A program made the translations under genes and the position numbers. DNA of 64,000 bases, from assembly GCA_031365725.1 (NCBI GenBank), contig JANLYQ010000060.1, forward strand, positions 19,073 through 83,072, written 5' to 3'. This stretch comes from Sporichthyaceae bacterium (lineage in GTDB: Bacteria; Actinomycetota; Actinomycetes; JACCUZ01). Under the pieces are notes generated by a model. That model had not been told where the DNA came from. It saw only the letters and a program-made list of their open reading frames with translations, and ran no database searches. This document shows positions 2,540-55,286 of the stretch, one piece after another (position 1 is the stretch's first letter; every line of letters begins with the position of its first letter).

Positions 2540-3037
2540 ATGTCGACACGTGGCGTGGTCTACGTCCATTCCGCACCGCCGGCGCTGTGCCCGCACATCG
2601 AGTGGGCCGTCGGTGGTGTCCTCGGCGTGCGCGTCACGCTGGACTGGACGCCTCAACCGGCAGCACCGGGCTCGGTGCGAGCAGAGTTGTCCTGGCAGGC
2701 CGACCCGGGCACCGGGTCACGGTTGGCCAGCGCGCTACGGGACTGGTTGCACCTGCGCTTCGAGGTGACCGAGGAACCCAGCGTCGGGACCGAGGGTGAG
2801 CGCTGGTCCTCGACGCCGGGTCTCGGTCTGTTCCACGCCTCCACCGGGGTGCACGGCGACCTCGTGGTGCGCGAGGACCGGCTGCGGGCCGCGATGGCGC
2901 GTGCCGCCTGCGATCCGGCTACCGACCTGCAGCGCGAGCTCGACGGCCTGCTCGGCAGCGCGTGGGACGGCGAGCTGGAGACCTTCCGGCACGCAGGTGA
3001 CGGCGCCCCGGTGCGCTGGCTGCACCAGGTGGTCTGA
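2540..3037 (+). CDS. conserved actinobacterial hypothetical protein (DUF3145-like)
   Basis: MSTRGVVYVHSAPPALCPHIEWAVGGVLG... resembles the DUF3145 family commonly next to fatty-acid synthesis genes. Confidence 0.55.
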   Translation: MSTRGVVYVHSAPPALCPHIEWAVGGVLGVRVTLDWTPQPAAPGSVRAELSWQADPGTGSRLASALRDWLHLRFEVTEEPSVGTEGERWSSTPGLGLFHASTGVHGDLVVREDRLRAAMARAACDPATDLQRELDGLLGSAWDGELETFRHAGDGAPVRWLHQVV

Positions 3038-3056
3038 GCCTGCTGGCCTGAGCCGC

Positions 3057-4499
3057 CTACAGCGGGATGTTGCCGTGGTCGCCGCGGGTCGCGGGGGCCT
3101 CGGCGATCGCCGCTGCGATGGCGGACCGGGTGCGGTCCGGCGAGATGATCTCGTCGATCACGCCGATCTCCTGGGCGCGGGCGAGACCGCCGGTGAGCTT
3201 CTCGTGCTCGGCCGCGAGCTCCGCCTCGACTTCACCACGCACGTCGTTGTGCACCTCGGCCAGACGCCGGCGGTGCAGGATGCGCACGGCAGCGACCGCG
3301 CCCATCACGGCCACCTCGGCTTCGGGCCACGCGAAGACCTTCGTAGCGCCGAGCGAGCGAGAGTTCATGGCGATGTAAGCGCCGCCGTAGGCCTTGCGGG
3401 TGACCAGCGTGACGCGGGGGACCGTCGCCTCGGCGAAGGCGTGCAGGAGCTTGGCCCCGCGACGTACGACGCCATCCCACTCCTGGCCCGCGCCGGGCAG
3501 GTAGCCGGGGACGTCGACGAGCACCACCAGCGGCACCCCGAACGCGTCGCACATACGCACGAAGCGGGCGGACTTCTCGGCCGAGGTCGAGTCCAGGCAC
3601 CCGCCGAGGCGCAGCGGGTTGTTGGCCACGACGCCGACCGTCCGCCCACCGAGGCGCCCCAGGGACGTGGTCACGTTGGGCGCCCACTTGGCGTGCAGCT
3701 CGAGGCCGCTGCCCTCATCGAGGAGGTGGTCGACGATCGGGTGCACGTCGTAGGCGCGCTTGGGTGAATCCGGCAGGTACGACGAGAGGTCGACGTCGTC
3801 GACCGCGCCGATGCTGCGCTGGTCACCGAGCAGCGCAGCGAGCCGCCGCGCCTCGCCGTAGGCATCAGCCTCGGTCTCAGCCACGACGTGCACGACACCG
3901 GAGCGCCGGCCGTGCGGCTCAGGACCACCGAGACGCAGCGCGTCGACGTCCTCACCGGTGACCGAGCGCACGACGTCGGGACCGGTGACGAACACCCGAC
4001 CCTCGGGGCCGAGGATCACGACGTCGGTCAGCGCCGGCCCGTACGCCGCGCCACCAGCCGCCGCGCCGAGCACGACGGAGAGCTGCGGCACCTTGCCCGA
4101 GGCCTTGGTCATGATGGAGAAGATTTCGCCGATGGCGTGCAGCGAGACCACGCCCTCACGCAGCCGGGCACCGCCGGAGTGCCAGAGCCCGATCACTGGG
4201 CAGCCGAGCGTGAGCGCCTTGTCGTAAGCCGCGAGGATGACCTTGCAGCCGTCCTCACCCATTGCTCCGCCCTGGATCGTGGCGTCAGAGCAGAAGGCGA
4301 CCGACAACGTGCCTTCGATGCGGCCGAGGGCGGCGAGCATGCCCGAGTCGTCCTCGGGGGTGAGCAGCTCGACGGTGTTGTCGTCGAAGAGCAACCGCAA
4401 CCGGGTGAGCGGGTTGCGCGGGTCGTCGGCCTTGGCGACGACGACCTTGGCGGGTGCAGCGACGGTGGCAGGTGTGGAGCTGGCAGCGGTGGCGGTCAC
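3057..4499 (-). CDS. accD6: acyl-CoA carboxylase carboxyltransferase beta subunit (AccD6-like)
   Basis: 480 aa with carboxyltransferase N and C domains (GGARLREG, GGAYIAM motifs). Follows the kas gene with a GTGA start/stop overlap, as in the mycobacterial fasII operon. Confidence 0.9.
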   Translation of the reverse strand: MTATAASSTPATVAAPAKVVVAKADDPRNPLTRLRLLFDDNTVELLTPEDDSGMLAALGRIEGTLSVAFCSDATIQGGAMGEDGCKVILAAYDKALTLGCPVIGLWHSGGARLREGVVSLHAIGEIFSIMTKASGKVPQLSVVLGAAAGGAAYGPALTDVVILGPEGRVFVTGPDVVRSVTGEDVDALRLGGPEPHGRRSGVVHVVAETEADAYGEARRLAALLGDQRSIGAVDDVDLSSYLPDSPKRAYDVHPIVDHLLDEGSGLELHAKWAPNVTTSLGRLGGRTVGVVANNPLRLGGCLDSTSAEKSARFVRMCDAFGVPLVVLVDVPGYLPGAGQEWDGVVRRGAKLLHAFAEATVPRVTLVTRKAYGGAYIAMNSRSLGATKVFAWPEAEVAVMGAVAAVRILHRRRLAEVHNDVRGEVEAELAAEHEKLTGGLARAQEIGVIDEIISPDRTRSAIAAAIAEAPATRGDHGNIPL

Positions 4500-5770
4500 G
4501 GAGCGCTCCTGATGACGAGGGCGACGTTGTGGCCGCCGAACCCGAACGAGTTGTTGAGAGCCAGCAGGTCACCGGCAGGCAGCGCCCGCGCCTCGCCCCT
4601 GACGACGTCGAGGTGGACGTCGTCGTCGGGATCTTCGAGGTTGGTCGTGGCAGGGGCCAGCCGGTCCCGCAGGGCGAGCAGGGTGACGATGGACTCGACC
4701 GCGCCGGCTGCGCCGAGCAGGTGACCGGTCATCGACTTGGTGGCCGACACGCAGGCGCCGTCGGTGGCGTCCCCGAGGGCCTTGCGGATCGCCTCTGCCT
4801 CGGCGATGTCGCCGACCGGGGTGGAGGTGGCGTGCGCGTTGATGTGCACGACCTCGGAGGGGGAGGCACCGGCTTGCTCGAGGGCAAAGCGCATGGCCCG
4901 TGCGGCACCGGCTCCGGACGGGTCGGGCTGGGCGATGTGGTGAGCGTCCGAGCTGATGCCGCTGCCGGCGATCTCGCCGTAGATGTGGGCACCGCGAGCC
5001 TTGGCGTGGGCCAGCGACTCGAGCACGAGGACGCCGGCGCCCTCGCCGAGCACGAACCCGTCGCGGCCCTTGTCATAGGGCCGAGAGGCGCGATGCGGCT
5101 CGTCGTTGCGGGTGGACAGTGCCTGCATGGCAGCGAAGCCAGCCAGCGGCAGCGGGTGGATCGCGGCCTCGGTGCCGCCGGCGGCCACGACGTCGGCCCG
5201 GCCCATGCGGATCATGTCGCAGGCGTAGGCGATCGCCTCGGCGCCGCTGGAGCACGCGCTCACCGGCGTGTGCACGCCGGCCCGGGCCGAGATCTCGAGG
5301 CCGACCTGCGCGGCCGGGCCGTTGGGCATCAGCATCGGCACCGTCATCGGCAGCACCCGGCGGGCCCCGCGCTCCTTCAAGACGTCGTAGGCCGACAGCA
5401 GCGTGGTCACCCCGCCGATGCCGGAGGCGATGGCGACGCCGATGCGCTCGGGGTCGTCGCCCGGGGTGCCCGCATCGGCCCAGGCCTCACGCGCGGCGAT
5501 GAGGGCGAACTGCGCGGAGCGGTCGGTGCGCTTGATCAGCGGCACGGGCAGCACCTCTGACGGGTCGACTGCTGCCGATGCAGCGATGTGCACCGGCAGC
5601 ATGTCGACCCAGTCGGCCGTGATCGTCGAGACGCCGGACTTGCCGGCCAGCATCGCGGCCCAGGTGGTGGCCACGTCCCCGCCGAGCGGGGTCGTGGCAC
5701 CAAGGCCGGTCACCACCACGCGCTGGGCGTCGGTCAGTCGCGAGTCGGACGAGTCAGGCGATCCAGCCAT
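4496..5770 (-). CDS. fabF: beta-ketoacyl-ACP synthase II (KasA/FabF)
   Basis: 424 aa thiolase-fold KAS with active-site Cys (ACSSG) and His-His motifs. Lies downstream of acpP. Confidence 0.9.
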   Translation of the reverse strand: MAGSPDSSDSRLTDAQRVVVTGLGATTPLGGDVATTWAAMLAGKSGVSTITADWVDMLPVHIAASAAVDPSEVLPVPLIKRTDRSAQFALIAAREAWADAGTPGDDPERIGVAIASGIGGVTTLLSAYDVLKERGARRVLPMTVPMLMPNGPAAQVGLEISARAGVHTPVSACSSGAEAIAYACDMIRMGRADVVAAGGTEAAIHPLPLAGFAAMQALSTRNDEPHRASRPYDKGRDGFVLGEGAGVLVLESLAHAKARGAHIYGEIAGSGISSDAHHIAQPDPSGAGAARAMRFALEQAGASPSEVVHINAHATSTPVGDIAEAEAIRKALGDATDGACVSATKSMTGHLLGAAGAVESIVTLLALRDRLAPATTNLEDPDDDVHLDVVRGEARALPAGDLLALNNSFGFGGHNVALVIRSAP

Positions 5771-5773
5771 CGA

Positions 5774-6022
5774 TCAGGAGCCCGCCTTCTGGATGTAGGA
5801 GACGGCGTCTCCGACGGTGCTCAGCCCCTTGACGTCGTCGTCGGGGATGCGGACGCCGAACTTCTCCTCGGCGTTGACGACGATCGTCATCATCGACAGC
5901 GAGTCGATGTCGAGGTCGTCGGTGAACGACTTCTCGGGCAGCACGTCGGTGGTCGCGATGCCCGTTTCTTCGTTCACGATCTCGGCGAGACCCGCGAGGA
6001 TCTCCTGCTCGCTAGCAGCCAT
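5774..6022 (-). CDS. acpP: acyl carrier protein
   Basis: 82 aa with a DSL/DIDSLSMM phosphopantetheine attachment motif. Confidence 0.9.
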   Translation of the reverse strand: MAASEQEILAGLAEIVNEETGIATTDVLPEKSFTDDLDIDSLSMMTIVVNAEEKFGVRIPDDDVKGLSTVGDAVSYIQKAGS

Positions 6023-6076
6023 GAGGTTCCAGCTCCTTGGTGTGGGGTGTTCTCGGATGGTGCGGGGTTCGTGCGT

Positions 6077-7075
6077 TCAGGGCAGGACGACGACCTGGGC
6101 GGCATAGACCAGGCCGGCGCCGAAACCGATGAGCAGAGCGGTCTCCCCACTCTTTGCCTCTCCGGCCTCGAGCATGCGTTCCATCGCCAACGGGATCGAG
6201 GCAGCTGAGGTGTTGCCGGTGGTGCGCACGTCACGGGAGACCGCGACGGTGCCGGGGAGCTTCATCGCCTTGATCATCGAGTCGATGATGCGCACGTTGG
6301 CCTGGTGGGGGATGAACGCCCCGAGCTCGTCGGGGGCCACCCCTGCCGCCTCGAGCGCCTGCAGCGCGACCGGCGCCATCTGCCACACGGCCCAGCGGAA
6401 CACCTTCTGTCCCTGCATCGTGAGGTGCGGGAAGTCCACAGCGTGGTCTCGTACGTCGATCCAGGACGCGCGCTGGGTGATGGCGTCGTACTGCGAGCCA
6501 TCAGATCCCCACACGGTGGGGGAGATGCCCGGGAAGTCCGAGGGTCCGATCACCACAGCGCCTGCGCCGTCACCGAAGATGAAGGCGGTGGACCGGTCGT
6601 AGGAGTCGGTGAAGTCCGAGAGCTTCTCGACGCCGATGACGAGCACGTAGTCGGAGTTGCCGCCGCGCACGATGTCGTTGGCGAGTGCGACGCCGTAGCA
6701 GAAGCCGGCGCAGGCAGCGGACAGGTCGGTGGCGGCCGCATCGGTGGCACCGAGGCGGTCCGCGACGGCTGCCGCGGCCGACGGGGTCTGCAGCGGGTGG
6801 GTGACGGTCGCCAGCAGGATCGTGCCGACCTGCTCGGGCGTTATGCCGGCCTGGGCGATCGCCTTGCCGGCCGCGACGACCGCCATGTCGATGACACTCT
6901 CGTCGACCGCCGCACGGTGCCGGGACTCGATGCCCGAACGGTCCCGGATCCACTCGTCGGAGGAGTCGATGGTCTCGCAGACCTCGGCGTTGCTGACCAC
7001 CCGCGAGGGGCGATAGCCGCCGACGCCGAGGATGCGGGCGTGCTCGGGACCGCGCTTGGTCTTCAGGACCGCCAC
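6077..7075 (-). CDS. fabH: beta-ketoacyl-ACP synthase III
   Basis: 332 aa. FabH motifs are present (GVGGYRP, active-site Cys in CAGF, and the GNTSAASIPLA C-terminal motif). Confidence 0.9.
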   Translation of the reverse strand: MAVLKTKRGPEHARILGVGGYRPSRVVSNAEVCETIDSSDEWIRDRSGIESRHRAAVDESVIDMAVVAAGKAIAQAGITPEQVGTILLATVTHPLQTPSAAAAVADRLGATDAAATDLSAACAGFCYGVALANDIVRGGNSDYVLVIGVEKLSDFTDSYDRSTAFIFGDGAGAVVIGPSDFPGISPTVWGSDGSQYDAITQRASWIDVRDHAVDFPHLTMQGQKVFRWAVWQMAPVALQALEAAGVAPDELGAFIPHQANVRIIDSMIKAMKLPGTVAVSRDVRTTGNTSAASIPLAMERMLEAGEAKSGETALLIGFGAGLVYAAQVVVLP

Positions 7076-31600: not shown

Positions 31601-31779
31601 GCGCCGAGCCTAGTGAGTGGCTATCGTGCGGCGCATGGACAACGTGGCGTGGTTGTTCGGCTACTTCGCCGTCCTGCCGTTTGTCTGGATCGTGGCAGGT
31701 TTGATCGTGGTGGCGCTTGTCGCCGTGGTGGTCACCGTCGTGGTTCGGCAGCCTCGGGTGTCGGCGTACAGCGACCGCA

Positions 31780-32292
31780 TCACCCCGTGACCAGTGCCAC
31801 GTCGCCGATGATGTCGGAGCCGTCCGTGCGCACGACGAGGCAGCTGTAACCGCGATCGTGCCACGCAAGGTCGGTGGGGGCGAAAGTGAGGACGTCGTAC
31901 GCCAGGTTGCCCTGCAGTGCCCGGTCGAATGCCGCGGCGCAGCGGTTGTCCACCATCGAGGCGATCGCTGTCGTGCCCGGGTACTCGCCCTCGGGCAGTG
32001 AGCCCGTGGTGATGACCTGTGCGGAGTGCGGCTCGGCGCAGGGCAAAGCGGTGAGCCCGTCGATCTCAGTCCTGCTGTCGAGGTGGACGCAGTCGCCGGC
32101 GCGCAGGGCGTTGACGGCTAGTGGGCCGCTCTTCACGAGTCGCTGGTTGGCGTCGCGGGCGGGGTCGTTGTGCGTGATGACCAGAATGAGGGCGATGCTG
32201 AGGACGGCCATGATGCCCAGCATCAGGGCGATGCCGCCGCAGCCGGGGCGCTTGTCCGGCGGGTAGTGCGCATGCTGGGTGTGTGAGGGCAC
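31780..32292 (-). CDS. septum-formation-family membrane protein
   Basis: N-terminal TM helix plus an extracytoplasmic domain with conserved Cys pairs (GDCVHL...CAEPH...DNRC). Resembles Pfam Septum_form. Confidence 0.5.
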   Translation of the reverse strand: MPSHTQHAHYPPDKRPGCGGIALMLGIMAVLSIALILVITHNDPARDANQRLVKSGPLAVNALRAGDCVHLDSRTEIDGLTALPCAEPHSAQVITTGSLPEGEYPGTTAIASMVDNRCAAAFDRALQGNLAYDVLTFAPTDLAWHDRGYSCLVVRTDGSDIIGDVALVTG

Positions 32293-32358
32293 GAGGCGCG
32301 AGCCTAGGCTTTCGGCCTTTCTCCCGCGGCCCGTCCCGCGCGCCGATGGGTCTCCCTG

Positions 32359-32958
32359 GTGCGCGCCTACAACCCGGCGGTGGAGATGGCGCCGCCGATG
32401 CTGCCGCCGGCCGTGACGCTGGCGGCCGCGCCCAGCAACAGCGCAGGCAGCGCACGCAGAGCTCGCGAGCGGTGGACGTCAGGTGCTGGCCCCGCGCGAG
32501 CGGTGCCGCAGCGGTGCGGGGACTGGGTCCGCTGGCTGGTCGATCCGGTCTCGGGGGAGCTGCTCGACGTCGGCGCCGAACGCTACCGGCCCTCCGACCG
32601 GCTGCGCCGGTTCGTCGTGGCCCAGGACCGGGTGTGCCGGTTCCCGGGCTGCCCCCGCCCGGCGTCGATGTGTGACTGCGACCACGTCGTGACCTTCGCC
32701 CACCACGGGCGCACCGTGCGGGTCAACCTCGGCCCGCTGTGCCGCTCCCACCACAACGCGAAGACCCACGGACTGTGGCAACTCGCCTACGACCCCGACA
32801 CCGGGGACAAGACTGGACCAGCCCCCGGGCAAGGCCTACACCGTGAGCACCGACCCCGTCCTCACCTGAGTCGACCCAGCACCAGAGCACGATCGAGACA
32901 GCGCACCCGGGGGCCAGCGCACCAGAGCACCCGCGCACCAGAAGGCCAGGACACCTGA
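32359..32958 (+). pseudogene. 5'-truncated remnant of a DUF222/HNH endonuclease (REP13E12-like) gene
   Basis: Only the C-terminal HNH region is present (RFVVAQDRVCRFPGCPRPASMCDCDHVVTFAHHGRTVRVNLGPLCRSHHNAKTHGLW). The roughly 300-aa DUF222 N-terminal part is absent. The septum-protein gene abuts it. Confidence 0.5.
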
Positions 32959-32960
32959 CG

Positions 32961-33024
32961 GCCAGAGGGCCAGAGGGCCAGAGGGCCAGAGGGCCAGAGG
33001 GCCAGAGGGCCAGACGGCCGGAGA
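32961..33024. repeat. octanucleotide microsatellite (GCCAGAGG) x6 perfect plus 2 degenerate copies, 35 bp upstream of the metallophosphoesterase start
   Basis: The sequence gccagagggccagagggccagagggccagagggccagagggccagagggccagacggccggaga is seen directly. Confidence 0.9.
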
Positions 33025-33058
33025 ATCGGAGCGTTGGAGCCCGCGTGGATTCGCGCAC

Positions 33059-33877
33059 ATGCGCATCGCGGTGCTCGCGGACATCCACGCGAACCTGCCC
33101 GCGCTGGAAGCTGTCCTCGCTGAGCCGGACGTCACATCGGCCGACAGGGTGGTGCTGCTGGGCGACATTGCCCTTGGGCCGATGCCGGCTGAGTCACTCG
33201 ACCTGCTCAGCGCTCTCGGCGAGCGAGCGGTGTGGGTTCACAGCAACTGCGAGCGCGAAATTGTTGCTGCGTACGACGCCCGCGAGCACCGTGCTCCCGC
33301 GCAGAGCGTCGCTCAGCATCCCGCGGCCGGCCGCCACGTGGAGGAGTCCGAGGGTCCCACCATGGCGAAGGCCGAGGTGTCCAAACCGCCGGCGGCACGG
33401 GCCGGCGCGGCACCATTGCAACCGCACCATCGCGACCTGCTCGATGGTGTGCCGATGACGGTGACGCTCGATGTCGACGGGCTCGGCCCGGTGCTGTCCT
33501 GCCACGCCACGCCCCGGCGCGACGACGAGGTCGTCCTCGTTGACAGCCCCATGACCCGATGGGTCGACGTGCTGCACGGCGTCGCCGAGCCGACCGTCGT
33601 GCTGGGCCACACGCACATGCCCTTCGACCGCCTCGTCGACCGCCGGCGAGTCGTCAATCCGGGCAGCGTCGGCATGGCCTACGGCGCGTCCGGCGCCTGC
33701 TGGGCACTTCTCGGCACGCTGGGGTCACCGGTGCAGCTGCGGCGGACGGCGTATGACGTCAACAGGGCAGCTGCCCGCATCGCCGCGAGCAGCTACGAGG
33801 GCGCCGACTCGTGGGCCCAGGACTATGTGCTCGCGCCCCCTCGGATGCCGAGGCACTCGAGGTCTTCACCCGCCTGA
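33059..33877 (+). CDS. metallophosphoesterase (calcineurin-like, YfcE/MJ0936-type)
   Basis: MRIAVLADIHANLPALEAVL, GDIALGP and GHTHMPFD motifs. Confidence 0.8.
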   Translation: MRIAVLADIHANLPALEAVLAEPDVTSADRVVLLGDIALGPMPAESLDLLSALGERAVWVHSNCEREIVAAYDAREHRAPAQSVAQHPAAGRHVEESEGPTMAKAEVSKPPAARAGAAPLQPHHRDLLDGVPMTVTLDVDGLGPVLSCHATPRRDDEVVLVDSPMTRWVDVLHGVAEPTVVLGHTHMPFDRLVDRRRVVNPGSVGMAYGASGACWALLGTLGSPVQLRRTAYDVNRAAARIAASSYEGADSWAQDYVLAPPRMPRHSRSSPA

Positions 33878-48857: not shown

Positions 48858-49340
48858 CTAGCGGCCGCGGGCAGCCGTCTTGCGGGCTGTCGTCTTTTTG
48901 GCGGCAGCCTTCTTCGTGGTCTTGCGGGCGGGTGCCTTCTTGGCAGCCGTCTTGCGCGCGGTCGTCTTCTTGGTCGTGGTCTTCTTGGCCGCGGACTTGC
49001 GCGCGGTGGTCTTCTTGGCCGCAGCCTTCTTCGCGGTCGTCTTCTTCGCGGCAGCCTTCTTGGTGGTCGTCTTGCGCGCGGTGGTCTTCTTCGCCGCAGC
49101 CTTCTTCGCGGTCGTCTTCTTGGCTGTCGACTTCTTCGCCGCAGCCTTCTTGGCAGTGGTGCGCTTCGCCGTCGTCGTCTTGCGGGCGGAGCTGGTTGCT
49201 GCGTGAGTCACCTTCGCGGTGGTCTCGTCCTCTGTGGCCGGCACACGTGCCTCCTGCGCTCGTCCGTCGTCCCCATGGCCGACGTGTTCACTCAGAAAGA
49301 TCGCATCCTCTGCCACGTGTGACCAGCATTTGTCGCACAC
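48858..49340 (-). CDS. Lys/Ala/Thr-rich basic repeat protein (histone H1-like / HupB C-terminal-tail-like)
   Basis: Repeats of [13 protein letters not shown] in the protein. The DNA between 48880 and 49200 is tandemly repetitive. Confidence 0.5.
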
Positions 49341-52718: not shown

Positions 52719-55286
52719 TCAGGCCCGCCCGATCCGGCGTACGTCGGGGTGCGCACCACCGGCACCGGCACCGGCACCGGCACCGGCCGCAGGAGGCTGC
52801 ACCGGGCGCGCGTCGCCGGACGTGACCTCGGCGTCGGTCGCCTCGATGCGCAGGCGCGTGGCGTACGCCGCGAAGTGCTCGGAGAGCCAGCTGGTCATGG
52901 CCGTTGCCGGCATCGGCTTGGCCAGGTAGTAGCCCTGCACCAGGTCGCAGCCGAGCTCCTCGAGCACCCGCCATGCCGCAGCGTCCTCGACGCCTTCGGC
53001 GACGACGCGCAGGCCGAGGTCGTGCCCGAGCCCGATGACGGCCCGCACGATGGCGAGGTCGTCGCTGCGCTCGGCCAGATGAAGCACGAACGAGCGGTCG
53101 ATCTTGACCTCGTGCACCGGCAGGCTGCGCAGCCGGGTGAGCGAGGAGTAGCCGGTGCCGAAGTCGTCGACCGAGACGAGCAGCCCCAGGTCGACGAGTC
53201 GGTCGAGGGCCCGCACGGCCCGCTCGGGTTCGGCCACGATCGCGCTCTCGGTGACCTCCAGCTTCAGCAGTGCGGCCGGCAGACCGGCTTGCACGAGCAG
53301 CCGGGCGACGGTGTCGGCGAGCTCCGGCTCGAGCAGGTTGCGCATGGAGACGTTGACGGCCATGAGCACCGGGGTGCCGGCCTCGCGCCACGCGACGCAC
53401 TGCCGGATAGCGGTCTCGATCACGAAGCGGGTCAACGGCTTGATCAGACCGGTGTGCTCGGCTAGCGGGATGAACTCGTCGGGTGCGACGTTGCCCCACA
53501 CCGGGTGCTTCCACCGGATCAGCGCCTCGACGCCGGTGACCTGACCGCTGCTCGGATCGGCCTGCGGCTGGTAGTGCAGCTCCAGTCCGCCGTCCTCGAG
53601 AGCGCGCGCCAGGTCACCGATCAGGGACAGGCGCCGCGAGCTGTAGGGGTCGCGCTCAGCGGAATAGCGCGCCACGCCGCTGTGCGAGCGCTTGGCGTCG
53701 TACATCGCGACCTCTGCCCTGCGCAAGATCAGTGCGGCCGACGAGCCGTCCCGAGGCGTGGTGGCGATGCCGATCGAGGCCATCACGTCGATCGTCACCT
53801 CGCCGAGGTCGAAGGGGCGGGCCATGTCGCGGGTGATGCGCGCCACCATGCCCTCGACGTGCACGTCGTCGCCGCCGAGCAGCACGGCGAACTCGTCGCC
53901 ACCGAGGCGGGCGACCACGGTCTCGTCCCGTTCGACCTGACGCAGCCGACGGCCGACCTCGCGCAGCAGCCGGTCGCCGACATCGTGCCCGAGGGTGTCG
54001 TTGACCTCCTTGAAGCGATCGACGTCCATCAGCAGGACCGCGGCCGAGCCGTCGGCAAGCAGCCGCTGCTCGAGCCGCAGCTGGAAGTGCAGGCGGTTCG
54101 GCAGCCCGGTCAGCGGGTCGTGCAAGGAGAGGTGCTCGGTCTCCTGTGCGGCGGCGCGGACGCGGGCGACCAGACCGGAGTTGGTGAGAGCGACGCTGGC
54201 GTGCCCGGCCAGCGCCTCGAAGAGCTTGAGGTCGTCCTTGTCGAAGGTGCTCATCGCGTCCAGGCGGTCGGTGACCACGAAGATGCCGGTGATCTCCCCT
54301 CCGTCGCGCAGCGGAGCGGCCATGCCGTCGTGGTGACCCTCGGCGCGCAGCAGGGCGTACGCCGTGTCTGTGCCACCGCGGGCCAGCAGGACCGGATCCC
54401 CGGTCAGCGCCCCGGCCCACCACGCGTCAGCATGGGGCTGGGCAAGCAGCACGGACGCCGTGGTGGCACGCAGCAGCTCGCACGCCTCGCCCCGGACCGT
54501 CTCCATGACGTTGCCCTCGGCCAGCGACCGGTCGACCGAGCGGGTGAAGCGGTAGAGGAGCTCGAGCCGCGCGTAGCGCAGACGCTGGACGTGGTAACCC
54601 CGGTAGAGCAGGAAGCTCAGGATTGCCAGCACACCGAGCAGTGCCAGTGCGGATGGTGCCTCCCGAAGTGACAGAACCGCGAGCAGCGCGAGGTCGGTCA
54701 CCACAAATGTGCCCACGGCGGCTACGCCCAGAGTGCGGAGAAAGCCGCGAAGGTCCCATGAATCGGTCCGCAGGCTGATGATCGCAAACACCGCTGTCGC
54801 GCCCACGGCGTCTGCAGCCAGGACAGAGACAAGCACGACCAGCCACAACCGTGGCGACGTCTGTCCGGTCTGCAAGGAGAGAAGCGAAGACATCGAGGTG
54901 AAGGTCACCGTTGCGACAGCAACTTGCGCTGCGGCCGAGGCCACGTTGAAGACAAACTTGATCGGCTGGTTGCGCCGGATCACCGCCTGCTCGACCACGA
55001 TTCCCACCACCGCCGCCGTCACCAGGTGGCTGGTGGTCAGAAAGAGCAGCCCAAGCACCAAGGGCGCTTGGCTCAGCGTGAGGCTGTGGTTGTCGCGACC
55101 CACCGGCAGGTGCAGCGACACCACCGCAGTCAGGCAGAACAAGGCAGCCACTACCGGCCACCAGATGTGCGGCGTCAGAGCGGGGAGCTCTGGGTCGAGG
55201 TACCAGACGGCGCCTGCGCCGGCGGCGAGAAGCCCGCTGAGCAGCCAGATGAGGCTGTCAGTCGAGCTTCGCCAACGCTGTCTCAT
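52719..55286 (-). CDS. membrane-bound GGDEF-EAL (diguanylate cyclase / phosphodiesterase) signalling protein with an N-terminal multi-TM sensor
   Basis: RLGGDEFAVLL (GGDEF) and EALIRW (EAL) motifs. Roughly 7 N-terminal TM helices. Confidence 0.85.
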   Translation of the reverse strand: MRQRWRSSTDSLIWLLSGLLAAGAGAVWYLDPELPALTPHIWWPVVAALFCLTAVVSLHLPVGRDNHSLTLSQAPLVLGLLFLTTSHLVTAAVVGIVVEQAVIRRNQPIKFVFNVASAAAQVAVATVTFTSMSSLLSLQTGQTSPRLWLVVLVSVLAADAVGATAVFAIISLRTDSWDLRGFLRTLGVAAVGTFVVTDLALLAVLSLREAPSALALLGVLAILSFLLYRGYHVQRLRYARLELLYRFTRSVDRSLAEGNVMETVRGEACELLRATTASVLLAQPHADAWWAGALTGDPVLLARGGTDTAYALLRAEGHHDGMAAPLRDGGEITGIFVVTDRLDAMSTFDKDDLKLFEALAGHASVALTNSGLVARVRAAAQETEHLSLHDPLTGLPNRLHFQLRLEQRLLADGSAAVLLMDVDRFKEVNDTLGHDVGDRLLREVGRRLRQVERDETVVARLGGDEFAVLLGGDDVHVEGMVARITRDMARPFDLGEVTIDVMASIGIATTPRDGSSAALILRRAEVAMYDAKRSHSGVARYSAERDPYSSRRLSLIGDLARALEDGGLELHYQPQADPSSGQVTGVEALIRWKHPVWGNVAPDEFIPLAEHTGLIKPLTRFVIETAIRQCVAWREAGTPVLMAVNVSMRNLLEPELADTVARLLVQAGLPAALLKLEVTESAIVAEPERAVRALDRLVDLGLLVSVDDFGTGYSSLTRLRSLPVHEVKIDRSFVLHLAERSDDLAIVRAVIGLGHDLGLRVVAEGVEDAAAWRVLEELGCDLVQGYYLAKPMPATAMTSWLSEHFAAYATRLRIEATDAEVTSGDARPVQPPAAGAGAGAGAGGAHPDVRRIGRA
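52757..52786. repeat. (CACCGG)x5 hexanucleotide repeat inside the 3' end of the GGDEF-EAL gene (encodes Gly-Ala repeats on the minus strand)
   Basis: Seen directly. The unit is 6 bp, so copy-number change would stay in frame. Confidence 0.7.

Follow-up and report, generated by a model that had tools for sequence, protein, structure and literature searches.

A length-polymorphic octanucleotide array in the trailer of an HNH pseudogene abuts a metallophosphoesterase gene in an uncultured actinomycete

Results

The locus

The window, as we call the whole 64,000-nucleotide stretch of DNA that was analysed, has a G+C content of 70% and belongs to an uncultured member of the Actinomycetes. The closest cultured relatives of this host are Cryptosporangium, Vallicoccus and Microbispora, at 76-78% AceE identity. 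A conserved actinobacterial gene order is found in the window (aceE ... RNase H/CobC fusion ... RNase II-like gene, RNase P RNA ... glnE). A metallophosphoesterase (MPE) gene is preceded there by a tandem array of 8-bp units, which in turn follows the remains of an HNH endonuclease gene. The features of this region are listed below; L002 is a contig of a close strain, and L129 and L135 are contigs of relatives.

31617/31636-31790: small hydrophobic ORF
31780-32292, minus strand: Septum_form-domain gene
32305-32310, plus strand: TAGGCT, the only TANNNT hexamer between the start of the Septum_form gene (32292) and the ATG of the MPE gene
32359-32869, plus strand: DUF222/HNH endonuclease pseudogene, a truncated and frameshifted C-terminal remnant (weak Pfam HNH match and homologues)
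32875-32959, no strand assigned: older degenerate part of the octamer tract, in 8-bp register with the perfect run (repeat search, TRF, comparison with L002 and L135)
32960-33007, no strand assigned: perfect core, (GGCCAGAG)x6, with a unit number that varies from strain to strain (direct reading, TRF)
33008-33015 and 33016-33023, no strand assigned: two degenerate 3' units, GGCCAGAC and GGCCGGAG, the same in every allele seen
33024-33058, plus strand: spacer of 35 nt between the array and the ATG, holding TGGATT at 33046-33051 (TAGATT in L002) and GGATTCG, which is common to the relative L129
33059-33877, plus strand: MPE gene, Metallophos_2, YfcE-like phosphodiesterase (Pfam PF12850, E 3e-14), directly downstream of the array

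No start codon precedes the ATG at 33059 in the MPE frame. This ATG opens the sequence MRIAVLADIH, a conserved N-terminal metal-binding motif that is also present in the relatives. The protein has 2936 homologues, of which the best non-self match shares 66% identity, and an exact-protein look-up of the window's MPE in the protein collection gave no match. The window protein is 272 aa long against about 247 aa in nearly all of the homologues, and it has about 25 additional residues, rich in Pro and Ala, inserted around positions 75-125.

The upstream neighbourhood of the gene has been rearranged. In relatives whose MPE is 65% identical (L129 3967-4003, L130 3969-4003), 31-32 bp lie between the MPE gene and a divergent luciferase-like or CoA-transferase gene. 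The window has an additional 1.4 kb or so here (31601-33023), which holds the small hydrophobic ORF and the Septum_form-domain gene, followed by the HNH remnant and then the octamer tract. A TAGTGAG motif that is conserved in the relatives' spacer has stayed beside the luciferase-like gene, at 31612-31618. The MPE gene is cut off from its ancestral upstream region, and its expression must therefore come from, or read through, the new upstream DNA. GAGCGT.G.GAG-like strings at both junctions of the 1.4-kb segment were considered as a target-site duplication; this was rejected, as only the left junction (31604-31618) matches the ancestral spacer.

The initial annotation had placed the array within an HNH-remnant region, and this remnant, which lies upstream of the array, proved to be real, as judged by a Pfam HNH match, weak as it is (E 0.0036), and by its homologues. 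The latter share 60-83% identity, have conserved CxxC...HH motifs and end in WTSPLGKTY...DPxLT, and one of them (P0126) directly follows a DUF222 gene. The window lacks the DUF222 part, and its sequence ahead of GDWVRWLVDP cannot be aligned any more, homology running from about 32500. Compared with L002, the reading frame is shifted by the loss of one base after 32812 and of another after 32826. Both frameshifts also occur in the independent Logan contig L132 and are therefore real. The native HNH stop is the TGA at 32867-32869; the shifted ORF runs to the TGA at 32956-32958, two bases before the array.

It had also been suggested that the array, if translated, could act as a frameshift switch. 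The MPE frame has no in-frame start codon upstream of 33059. The HNH-remnant ORF, in all of its start variants, and two minus-strand ORFs across the array are absent from a collection of 15 billion proteins, and the frameshifted HNH ORF and both minus-strand ORFs have no Pfam match. Since the array lies past both HNH stops and before the ATG of the MPE gene, and since the ORFs across it are without support, it is non-coding on both strands. A translational frameshift switch of the intragenic-repeat type was rejected accordingly, the array being outside every supportable ORF.

A side observation concerns a possible mobility of HNH sequences in this neighbourhood. In L129 (ERZ25039516 contig_3058, 5182-6151), a homologous short HNH gene, P0132 (151 aa), appears downstream of the MPE gene and before the RNase II-like gene, preceded by a 186-aa ORF without a Pfam match. 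The HNH remnant of the window thus lies upstream of the MPE gene, whereas the HNH gene of L129 apparently lies downstream of it. The placement in L129 was taken from the contig record and from the end of the 151-aa ORF, which translates to the HNH tail. If it is correct, the HNH element or its remnant has moved or inserted independently within the neighbourhood.

The octamer array

In the phase used by the initial annotation, the array reads as six GCCAGAGG units from 32961, followed by GCCAGACG and GCCGGAGA and ending at 33024; it is the same array as the one listed above. The perfect run measures 55 nt (6.9 units), the seventh unit matching in 7 of its 8 bases. TRF reported a period of 8 with 8.0 copies, 94% matches and a score of 114. 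A probe of two units gave 7 overlapping matches where 0.09 were expected, and none of 100 dinucleotide-preserving shuffles reached 7. Perfect arrays with a unit of 4-12 bp and at least four copies are limited in the 64 kb to this octamer array and an in-frame (CACCGG)5. Perfect short units thus stand head to tail beyond chance, as in a simple-sequence repeat or VNTR. The perfect octanucleotide array described just 5' of the MPE gene is borne out by direct reading, TRF, the shuffles and the 35 nt to the ATG, and independent assemblies confirmed that it exists.

The perfect run is continued on its 5' side by a degenerate tract in the same register. Units within 32875-32959 include CAGAGCAC, CAGCGCAC, CAGAAGGC, CAGGACAC and CTGACGGC, and the order of units is CCCAGCAC, CAGAGCAC, ..., CAGCGCAC, CAGAGCAC, CCGCGCAC, CAGAAGGC, CAGGACAC, CTGACGGC and then CAGAGGGC six times. 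In a repeat search from 32875 onward the start-to-start spacings were 8, with one of 16, and TRF gave rows at 32914-32942 and 32922-32999 on the degenerate part. L002 conserves 32875-32959 save for 2 SNPs. The whole degenerate octamer tract (32875-33034, roughly 150 bp, about 19 units) fills the non-coding trailer of the HNH pseudogene, and its layout identifies the perfect run as the young 3' end.

The origin of the tract can be followed in L135, the HNH gene of which is 83% identical. Its trailer after the TGA is gccgaccaagCAGAAGAAcGACACCTGACctGGTCAGAGcggg, the same CAGAAG / GACACCTGAC / GGYCAGAG series, in which the terminal unit occurs once, and at the equivalent place it holds "gacacctgacCTGGTCAGAGCGGG", one proto-unit. 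This single proto-unit in the HNH trailer of a relative indicates that the array expanded in place and was not imported with a mobile element, and on the strength of that comparison we count the in-place origin as established.

Copy number among strains

A second, fully resolved allele was obtained from L002 (ENA ERZ27315223, MEGAHIT contig k141_5735499), the only informative contig from the 5-member 90% cluster of the MPE. Over roughly 1590 aligned bases, 18 substitutions and two 1-bp indels separate L002 from the window, an identity of 98.9% in aligned columns. The array of L002 consists of GGCCAGAG x2, GGCCAGAC and GGCCGGAG. It is exactly 32 bp (4 units) shorter than that of the window, and both flanks are intact. 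The MPE of L002 shows 98% amino-acid identity, with 4 synonymous and 4 non-synonymous differences, which are too few to read selection either way, and a TCG->TAG stop removes its last 6 codons.

Two Logan contigs, L001 and L003 (SRR20217206 and SRR20217216), are 99.6% identical to the window and begin inside the array, with 3.9 units (GCCAGAG(GGCCAGAG)2GGCCAGAC). Logan unitigs are built with k=31, and a break at a repeat needs a 31-mer of pure repeat. The break of both contigs inside the array at this k therefore requires at least 4 perfect units in both Logan samples. The copy number thus varies among strains (6 perfect units in the window, 2 in L002 and at least 4 in two further samples), and the earlier description of a slippage-prone perfect simple-sequence repeat is supported. 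The change is in whole units between relatives with conserved flanks, and the array is real and length-polymorphic between close strains. Comparison of these alleles shows at least two allele classes within one species-level lineage and a tract that is length-mutable. The contrast of 6 versus 2 units is a fixed one, between lineages that have diverged by about 1%, and both fully resolved alleles come from metagenome assemblies. For neutral DNA at about 1% divergence, a perfect run of 6.9 units is unusual in its purity, which may be due to a recent expansion or to selection for mutability.

Short-k Logan contigs of three samples break in or near the locus (L001 at 1-40, L003 at 1-40, L132 at its end, window 32864, and L134 at its end, window 33053), and the octamer copy number is unreadable from such contigs. 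The breaks of L132 and L134 hint at strain heterogeneity around the locus. A search for further alleles through the Septum_form and CitMHS neighbours returned only Logan contigs, all of which end short of the array. A scan of JGI metagenomes with the 3' flank GGCCAGACGGCCGGAGAA gave 74 loci, all of them chance matches without flank homology.

Signals upstream of the MPE gene

A consensus scan of 32300-33400 found no sigma-70-like promoter and no terminator. No TA dinucleotide occurs in 32870-33058, and hence no TANNNT. The TAGGCT at 32305 is a candidate -10 element from which read-through transcription across the pseudogene and the array might start. Rfam gave no match at E<=1 in 32250-33150; at the gathering threshold, the whole window yielded RNase P RNA and one tRNA only. 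The array does not sit between any recognisable -35 and -10 elements.

The 35-nt spacer differs between the strains at one informative position. A G->A change at 33047 gives L002 a TAGATT 7 nt upstream of the ATG, which is a canonical TANNNT and a good candidate -10 for a leaderless mRNA. A leaderless promoter was considered for the window too, but there, as in both Logan alleles, TGGATT occupies this place and lacks the A at -11; TAGATT was seen in L002 only. The relatives carry AGGATT or AGGATG, so the G at 33047 is probably ancestral. The AGGA of the relatives could alternatively be a Shine-Dalgarno sequence. As far as these spacers can be compared, the expression signals of the MPE gene are evidently in flux. 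If the core promoter adjoins the ATG, the array would abut the -35 position, and changes in unit number would alter upstream spacing and phase (8 bp being about 0.76 helical turn) but not the core spacing.

Both strands of the array fold into serial GGCC/GGCC four-pair hairpins with AGAG or TCTC loops, with dG values of -17.4 and -15.6 kcal/mol and z values of -2.6 and -2.4.

The octamer in other genomes

A scan of GTDB genomes for octamer arrays (at least two units plus GGCCAGAS) found 51 loci in 42 of 185,579 species representatives. Fifteen of the genomes are actinobacterial (12 Streptomyces, 1 Kitasatospora and 2 Actinomycetes MAGs). The other hosts belong to the Proteobacteria, Gemmatimonadota, Acidobacteriota, Planctomycetota and Chloroflexota, or are represented by one Verrucomicrobia MAG with nine loci. 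The view that such simple-sequence loci are rare in actinobacteria was thus overstated, since identical octamer arrays occur in 15 actinobacterial species representatives and phase variation is documented in mycobacteria (PMC12817950, PMC11551767).

Among the 51 loci there was no orthologous locus, no locus with shared flanks and none with an HNH or MPE gene nearby. The idea that the array is part of a conserved mobile HNH element or of a dispersed family was rejected on these grounds. The actinobacterial arrays are mostly intergenic, sometimes about 15-60 nt from a gene start, and often lie beside other G-rich octamers such as GGCAGGTG, GGCAACGG and GAGCCAGG. Sorting the 51 foreign arrays by crude GC3/ORF criteria did not give a clear answer, and flank inspection was more useful. 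From their sequence contexts, the 51 loci look like recurrent independent births of microsatellites in GC-rich intergenic DNA, not like a family with a shared function.

Two groups of these arrays deserve mention in their own right. In Streptomyces and Actinomycetes, the GGCCAGAG array stands beside GGCAGGTG, GGCAACGG, GAGCCAGG and GGCCAGAA at L033 ~3000-3200, L038 ~2700-2830, L047 ~4070-4210 and L041 ~3950-4030, which suggests that GC-rich intergenic DNA may tend generally to spawn 8-bp microsatellites. In the Verrucomicrobia MAG OH_PBrB_58 (JAEWKR01), at least nine contigs (L007, L010, L011, L022, L028, L034, L035, L040 and L054) carry composite intergenic arrays, in which (GGCCGGAG/GGCCAGAG)n is followed by (GCTGAAAR)n and (ATCTCAAA/TTTCAAA)n; several of them are at contig ends. 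This MAG is unusually rich in 7-8 bp tandem repeats and recalls the heptamer direct-repeat sets of the Beggiatoaceae (PMC4679880).

Discussion

We consider it probable that the array is a slippage-driven octanucleotide microsatellite (VNTR), which has grown in the trailer of an HNH pseudogene under decay and has come to lie next to the MPE gene by chance. An ancestral single unit (GACACCTGAC-..GGYCAGAG..) would have been duplicated and, once several perfect copies were present, replication slippage would add or remove whole 8-bp units. GGCC:GGCC mini-hairpins on either single strand may help this slippage and stabilise slipped intermediates. It may also be helped by mismatch repair of the NucS type, which is blind to indels and which the host would possess by taxonomic inference; in mycobacteria, NucS leaves small indels unrepaired (PMC11551767). 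The older units on the 5' side would decay by point mutation while the 3' run stays perfect, and the outcome would be a tract of variable length, its end 35 nt short of the MPE start codon. The effect on the MPE gene is most likely nil or modest and graded, in that the distance or helical phase to upstream elements changes, and an on/off switch is not expected.

The array resembles bacterial simple-sequence repeats and VNTRs that vary by slipped-strand mispairing in its perfect head-to-tail short units, in the whole-unit change between close strains with conserved flanks, in the degenerate older units at one side and in its intergenic or pseudogene site. It differs from them in that the unit of 8 bp is longer than the 1-6 bp of classical microsatellites and far shorter than the units of mycobacterial MIRU/VNTR loci, and in that the host is an uncultured environmental actinomycete. 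By every property of simple-sequence repeats and VNTRs that was tested, the octamer array is one of them. If its length merely drifts, the locus is an ordinary microsatellite, which could be used as a strain marker for this uncultured lineage. It also shows once more that assemblies with a short k break at repeats of this kind.

It is possible, though we think it rather unlikely, that the array is a contingency locus or "rheostat", in which the gain or loss of 8-bp units changes MPE transcription through spacing, helical phase or the structure of the 5'-UTR. The phase would shift by about 0.76 turn per unit between a core promoter near the ATG and elements upstream of it. The short distance of 35 nt from the end of the array to the ATG and the whole-unit difference between close strains are consistent with this role. 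So is the loss of the ancestral upstream region of the gene, after which new DNA must supply or modulate the promoter, and the 2-unit allele of L002 has also gained the TAGATT (G->A) 7 nt before the ATG, a sign that the expression signals of the gene are evolving. Precedents exist in the octanucleotide repeats of putative promoter regions in Haemophilus (PMC3309571) and in the phase variation by promoter tandem repeats in M. tuberculosis (PMC12817950). However, promoter elements are unrecognisable in and around the array, which does not lie between any recognisable -35 and -10 elements. The MPE is a cytoplasmic-type phosphoesterase, a Metallophos_2 enzyme of phosphodiesterase type, and it falls outside the gene classes usual for contingency loci (surface, LPS/glycosylation, restriction-modification and uptake). 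Strong selection is not evident in the MPE of L002, which has a premature stop beside its 4 non-synonymous and 4 synonymous differences, few as these are. Moreover, the GGCCAGAG octamer expands at many unrelated intergenic sites, so its expansion needs no function.

The known systems of this kind differ from the present locus in ways that bear on the question. In H. influenzae, 7-bp ATCTTTC repeats lie upstream of hmw1A and hmw2A, and in biogroup aegyptius 8-bp GCATCATC repeats occur at the same position in 12-15 copies (PMC3309571). These loci are similar to ours in that tandem heptamers or octamers closely precede a gene and vary in copy number among strains, but they control surface adhesins of a host-adapted pathogen, whereas the array here has fewer copies and stands before a cytoplasmic-type enzyme. 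Expression of hmw1A and hmw2A is said to be graded with repeat number. The TAAA tract upstream of nadA is a known parallel of the rheostat type.

The promoter tandem repeats (PTRs) of M. tuberculosis lie upstream of dop, lpdA and cysG-efpA, 12-29 bp from the gene start (PMC12817950). Their units of 54-58 bp each contain a promoter sequence, so that copy number multiplies promoters, and they vary at 1e-2 to 1e-3 per chromosome (PMC12817950). PTRs share with our array an actinobacterial host, a position close upstream of a gene start and a copy number that differs between strains (in M. tuberculosis within populations too). In contrast to the PTR units, the 8-bp unit cannot hold a promoter and is without a TA for a -10 element, and the array is not of the PTR type.

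An intragenic octanucleotide repeat, CGAGCATA, reportedly acts as a frameshift switch in losA of H. influenzae. Switches of the losA type resemble our array in their perfect 8-bp units, the length of which is not a multiple of 3; they differ in that their repeats lie within the ORF after the start codon, whereas the array here is outside any ORF. Mycobacterial phase variation at homopolymer tracts, for example in glpK (PMC11551767), rests likewise on indels that NucS-type repair leaves, and it demonstrates that contingency-type variation exists in Actinobacteria. Those are mononucleotide tracts within coding sequence, however, and they cause reversible frameshifts.

Simple-sequence contingency is well known in Haemophilus and Neisseria and has recently been reported for long promoter repeats in M. 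tuberculosis. If the copy number of the octamer tunes the MPE gene, this form of regulation would extend to an environmental actinomycete, and a gene severed from its promoter would be able to acquire a mutable replacement. It can also be proposed that the octamer tract, born from pseudogene debris, is now a variable upstream region that tunes or switches the MPE gene in a free-living actinomycete, possibly because a G-quadruplex or a stack of hairpins can form on the sense strand only in alleles of at least 4 units. We regard this as doubtful. If true, it would represent an environmental-actinobacterial contingency locus of a type that has so far been described mainly in host-adapted pathogens.

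A function as a structural or protein-binding element appears improbable. Here the copy number would set the formation of a G-quadruplex from the repeat (GGGCCAGA)n, that is (GGG-N5)n with at least 4 units, or of an array of regulator sites. A regular expression for quadruplexes (G3+N1-7 x4) does match 32967-32993 on the plus strand, one of 4 such motifs in the 64 kb, so that four or more G3+ tracts with loops of 1-7 nt are present. With 6 GGG tracts in the window against 2 in L002, a quadruplex would be within reach of the long allele alone. On the other hand, the G4Hunter maximum is 0.84 and the mean 0.64, below the usual threshold of 1.2, because each unit also carries CC, and ViennaRNA with quadruplex energies prefers ordinary hairpins to a quadruplex. 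Against regulator sites, there is neither a known regulator nor a known conserved operator, and in the relatives the unit is not retained beside the MPE gene.

It is highly improbable that the difference of 6 and 2 copies is an artefact of expansion or collapse during metagenome assembly: both resolved alleles do come from metagenome assemblies and short-k Logan contigs do break at the array, but Logan unitigs of two more samples independently need at least 4 perfect units, the alleles of the window and L002 differ by precisely 4 units between intact flanks, and an array of 64 bp is shorter than typical reads and than the final k of 141 of MEGAHIT, which makes a collapse unlikely.

Two other repeats in the window were observed in passing, both on the minus strand. 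The perfect (CACCGG)5 at 52757-52787 is in frame in a GGDEF-EAL ORF (52719-55286), where it specifies (Ala-Gly)5 some 10 codons ahead of the stop. An ORF of 160 aa at 48858-49340 has a long Lys/Ala/Thr-rich tail, on which TRF rows (48885-49182) reveal nested periodicities of 15, 30, 45 and 75 bp, and this tail is similar to the basic, histone-like ones in nucleoid proteins of actinobacteria.
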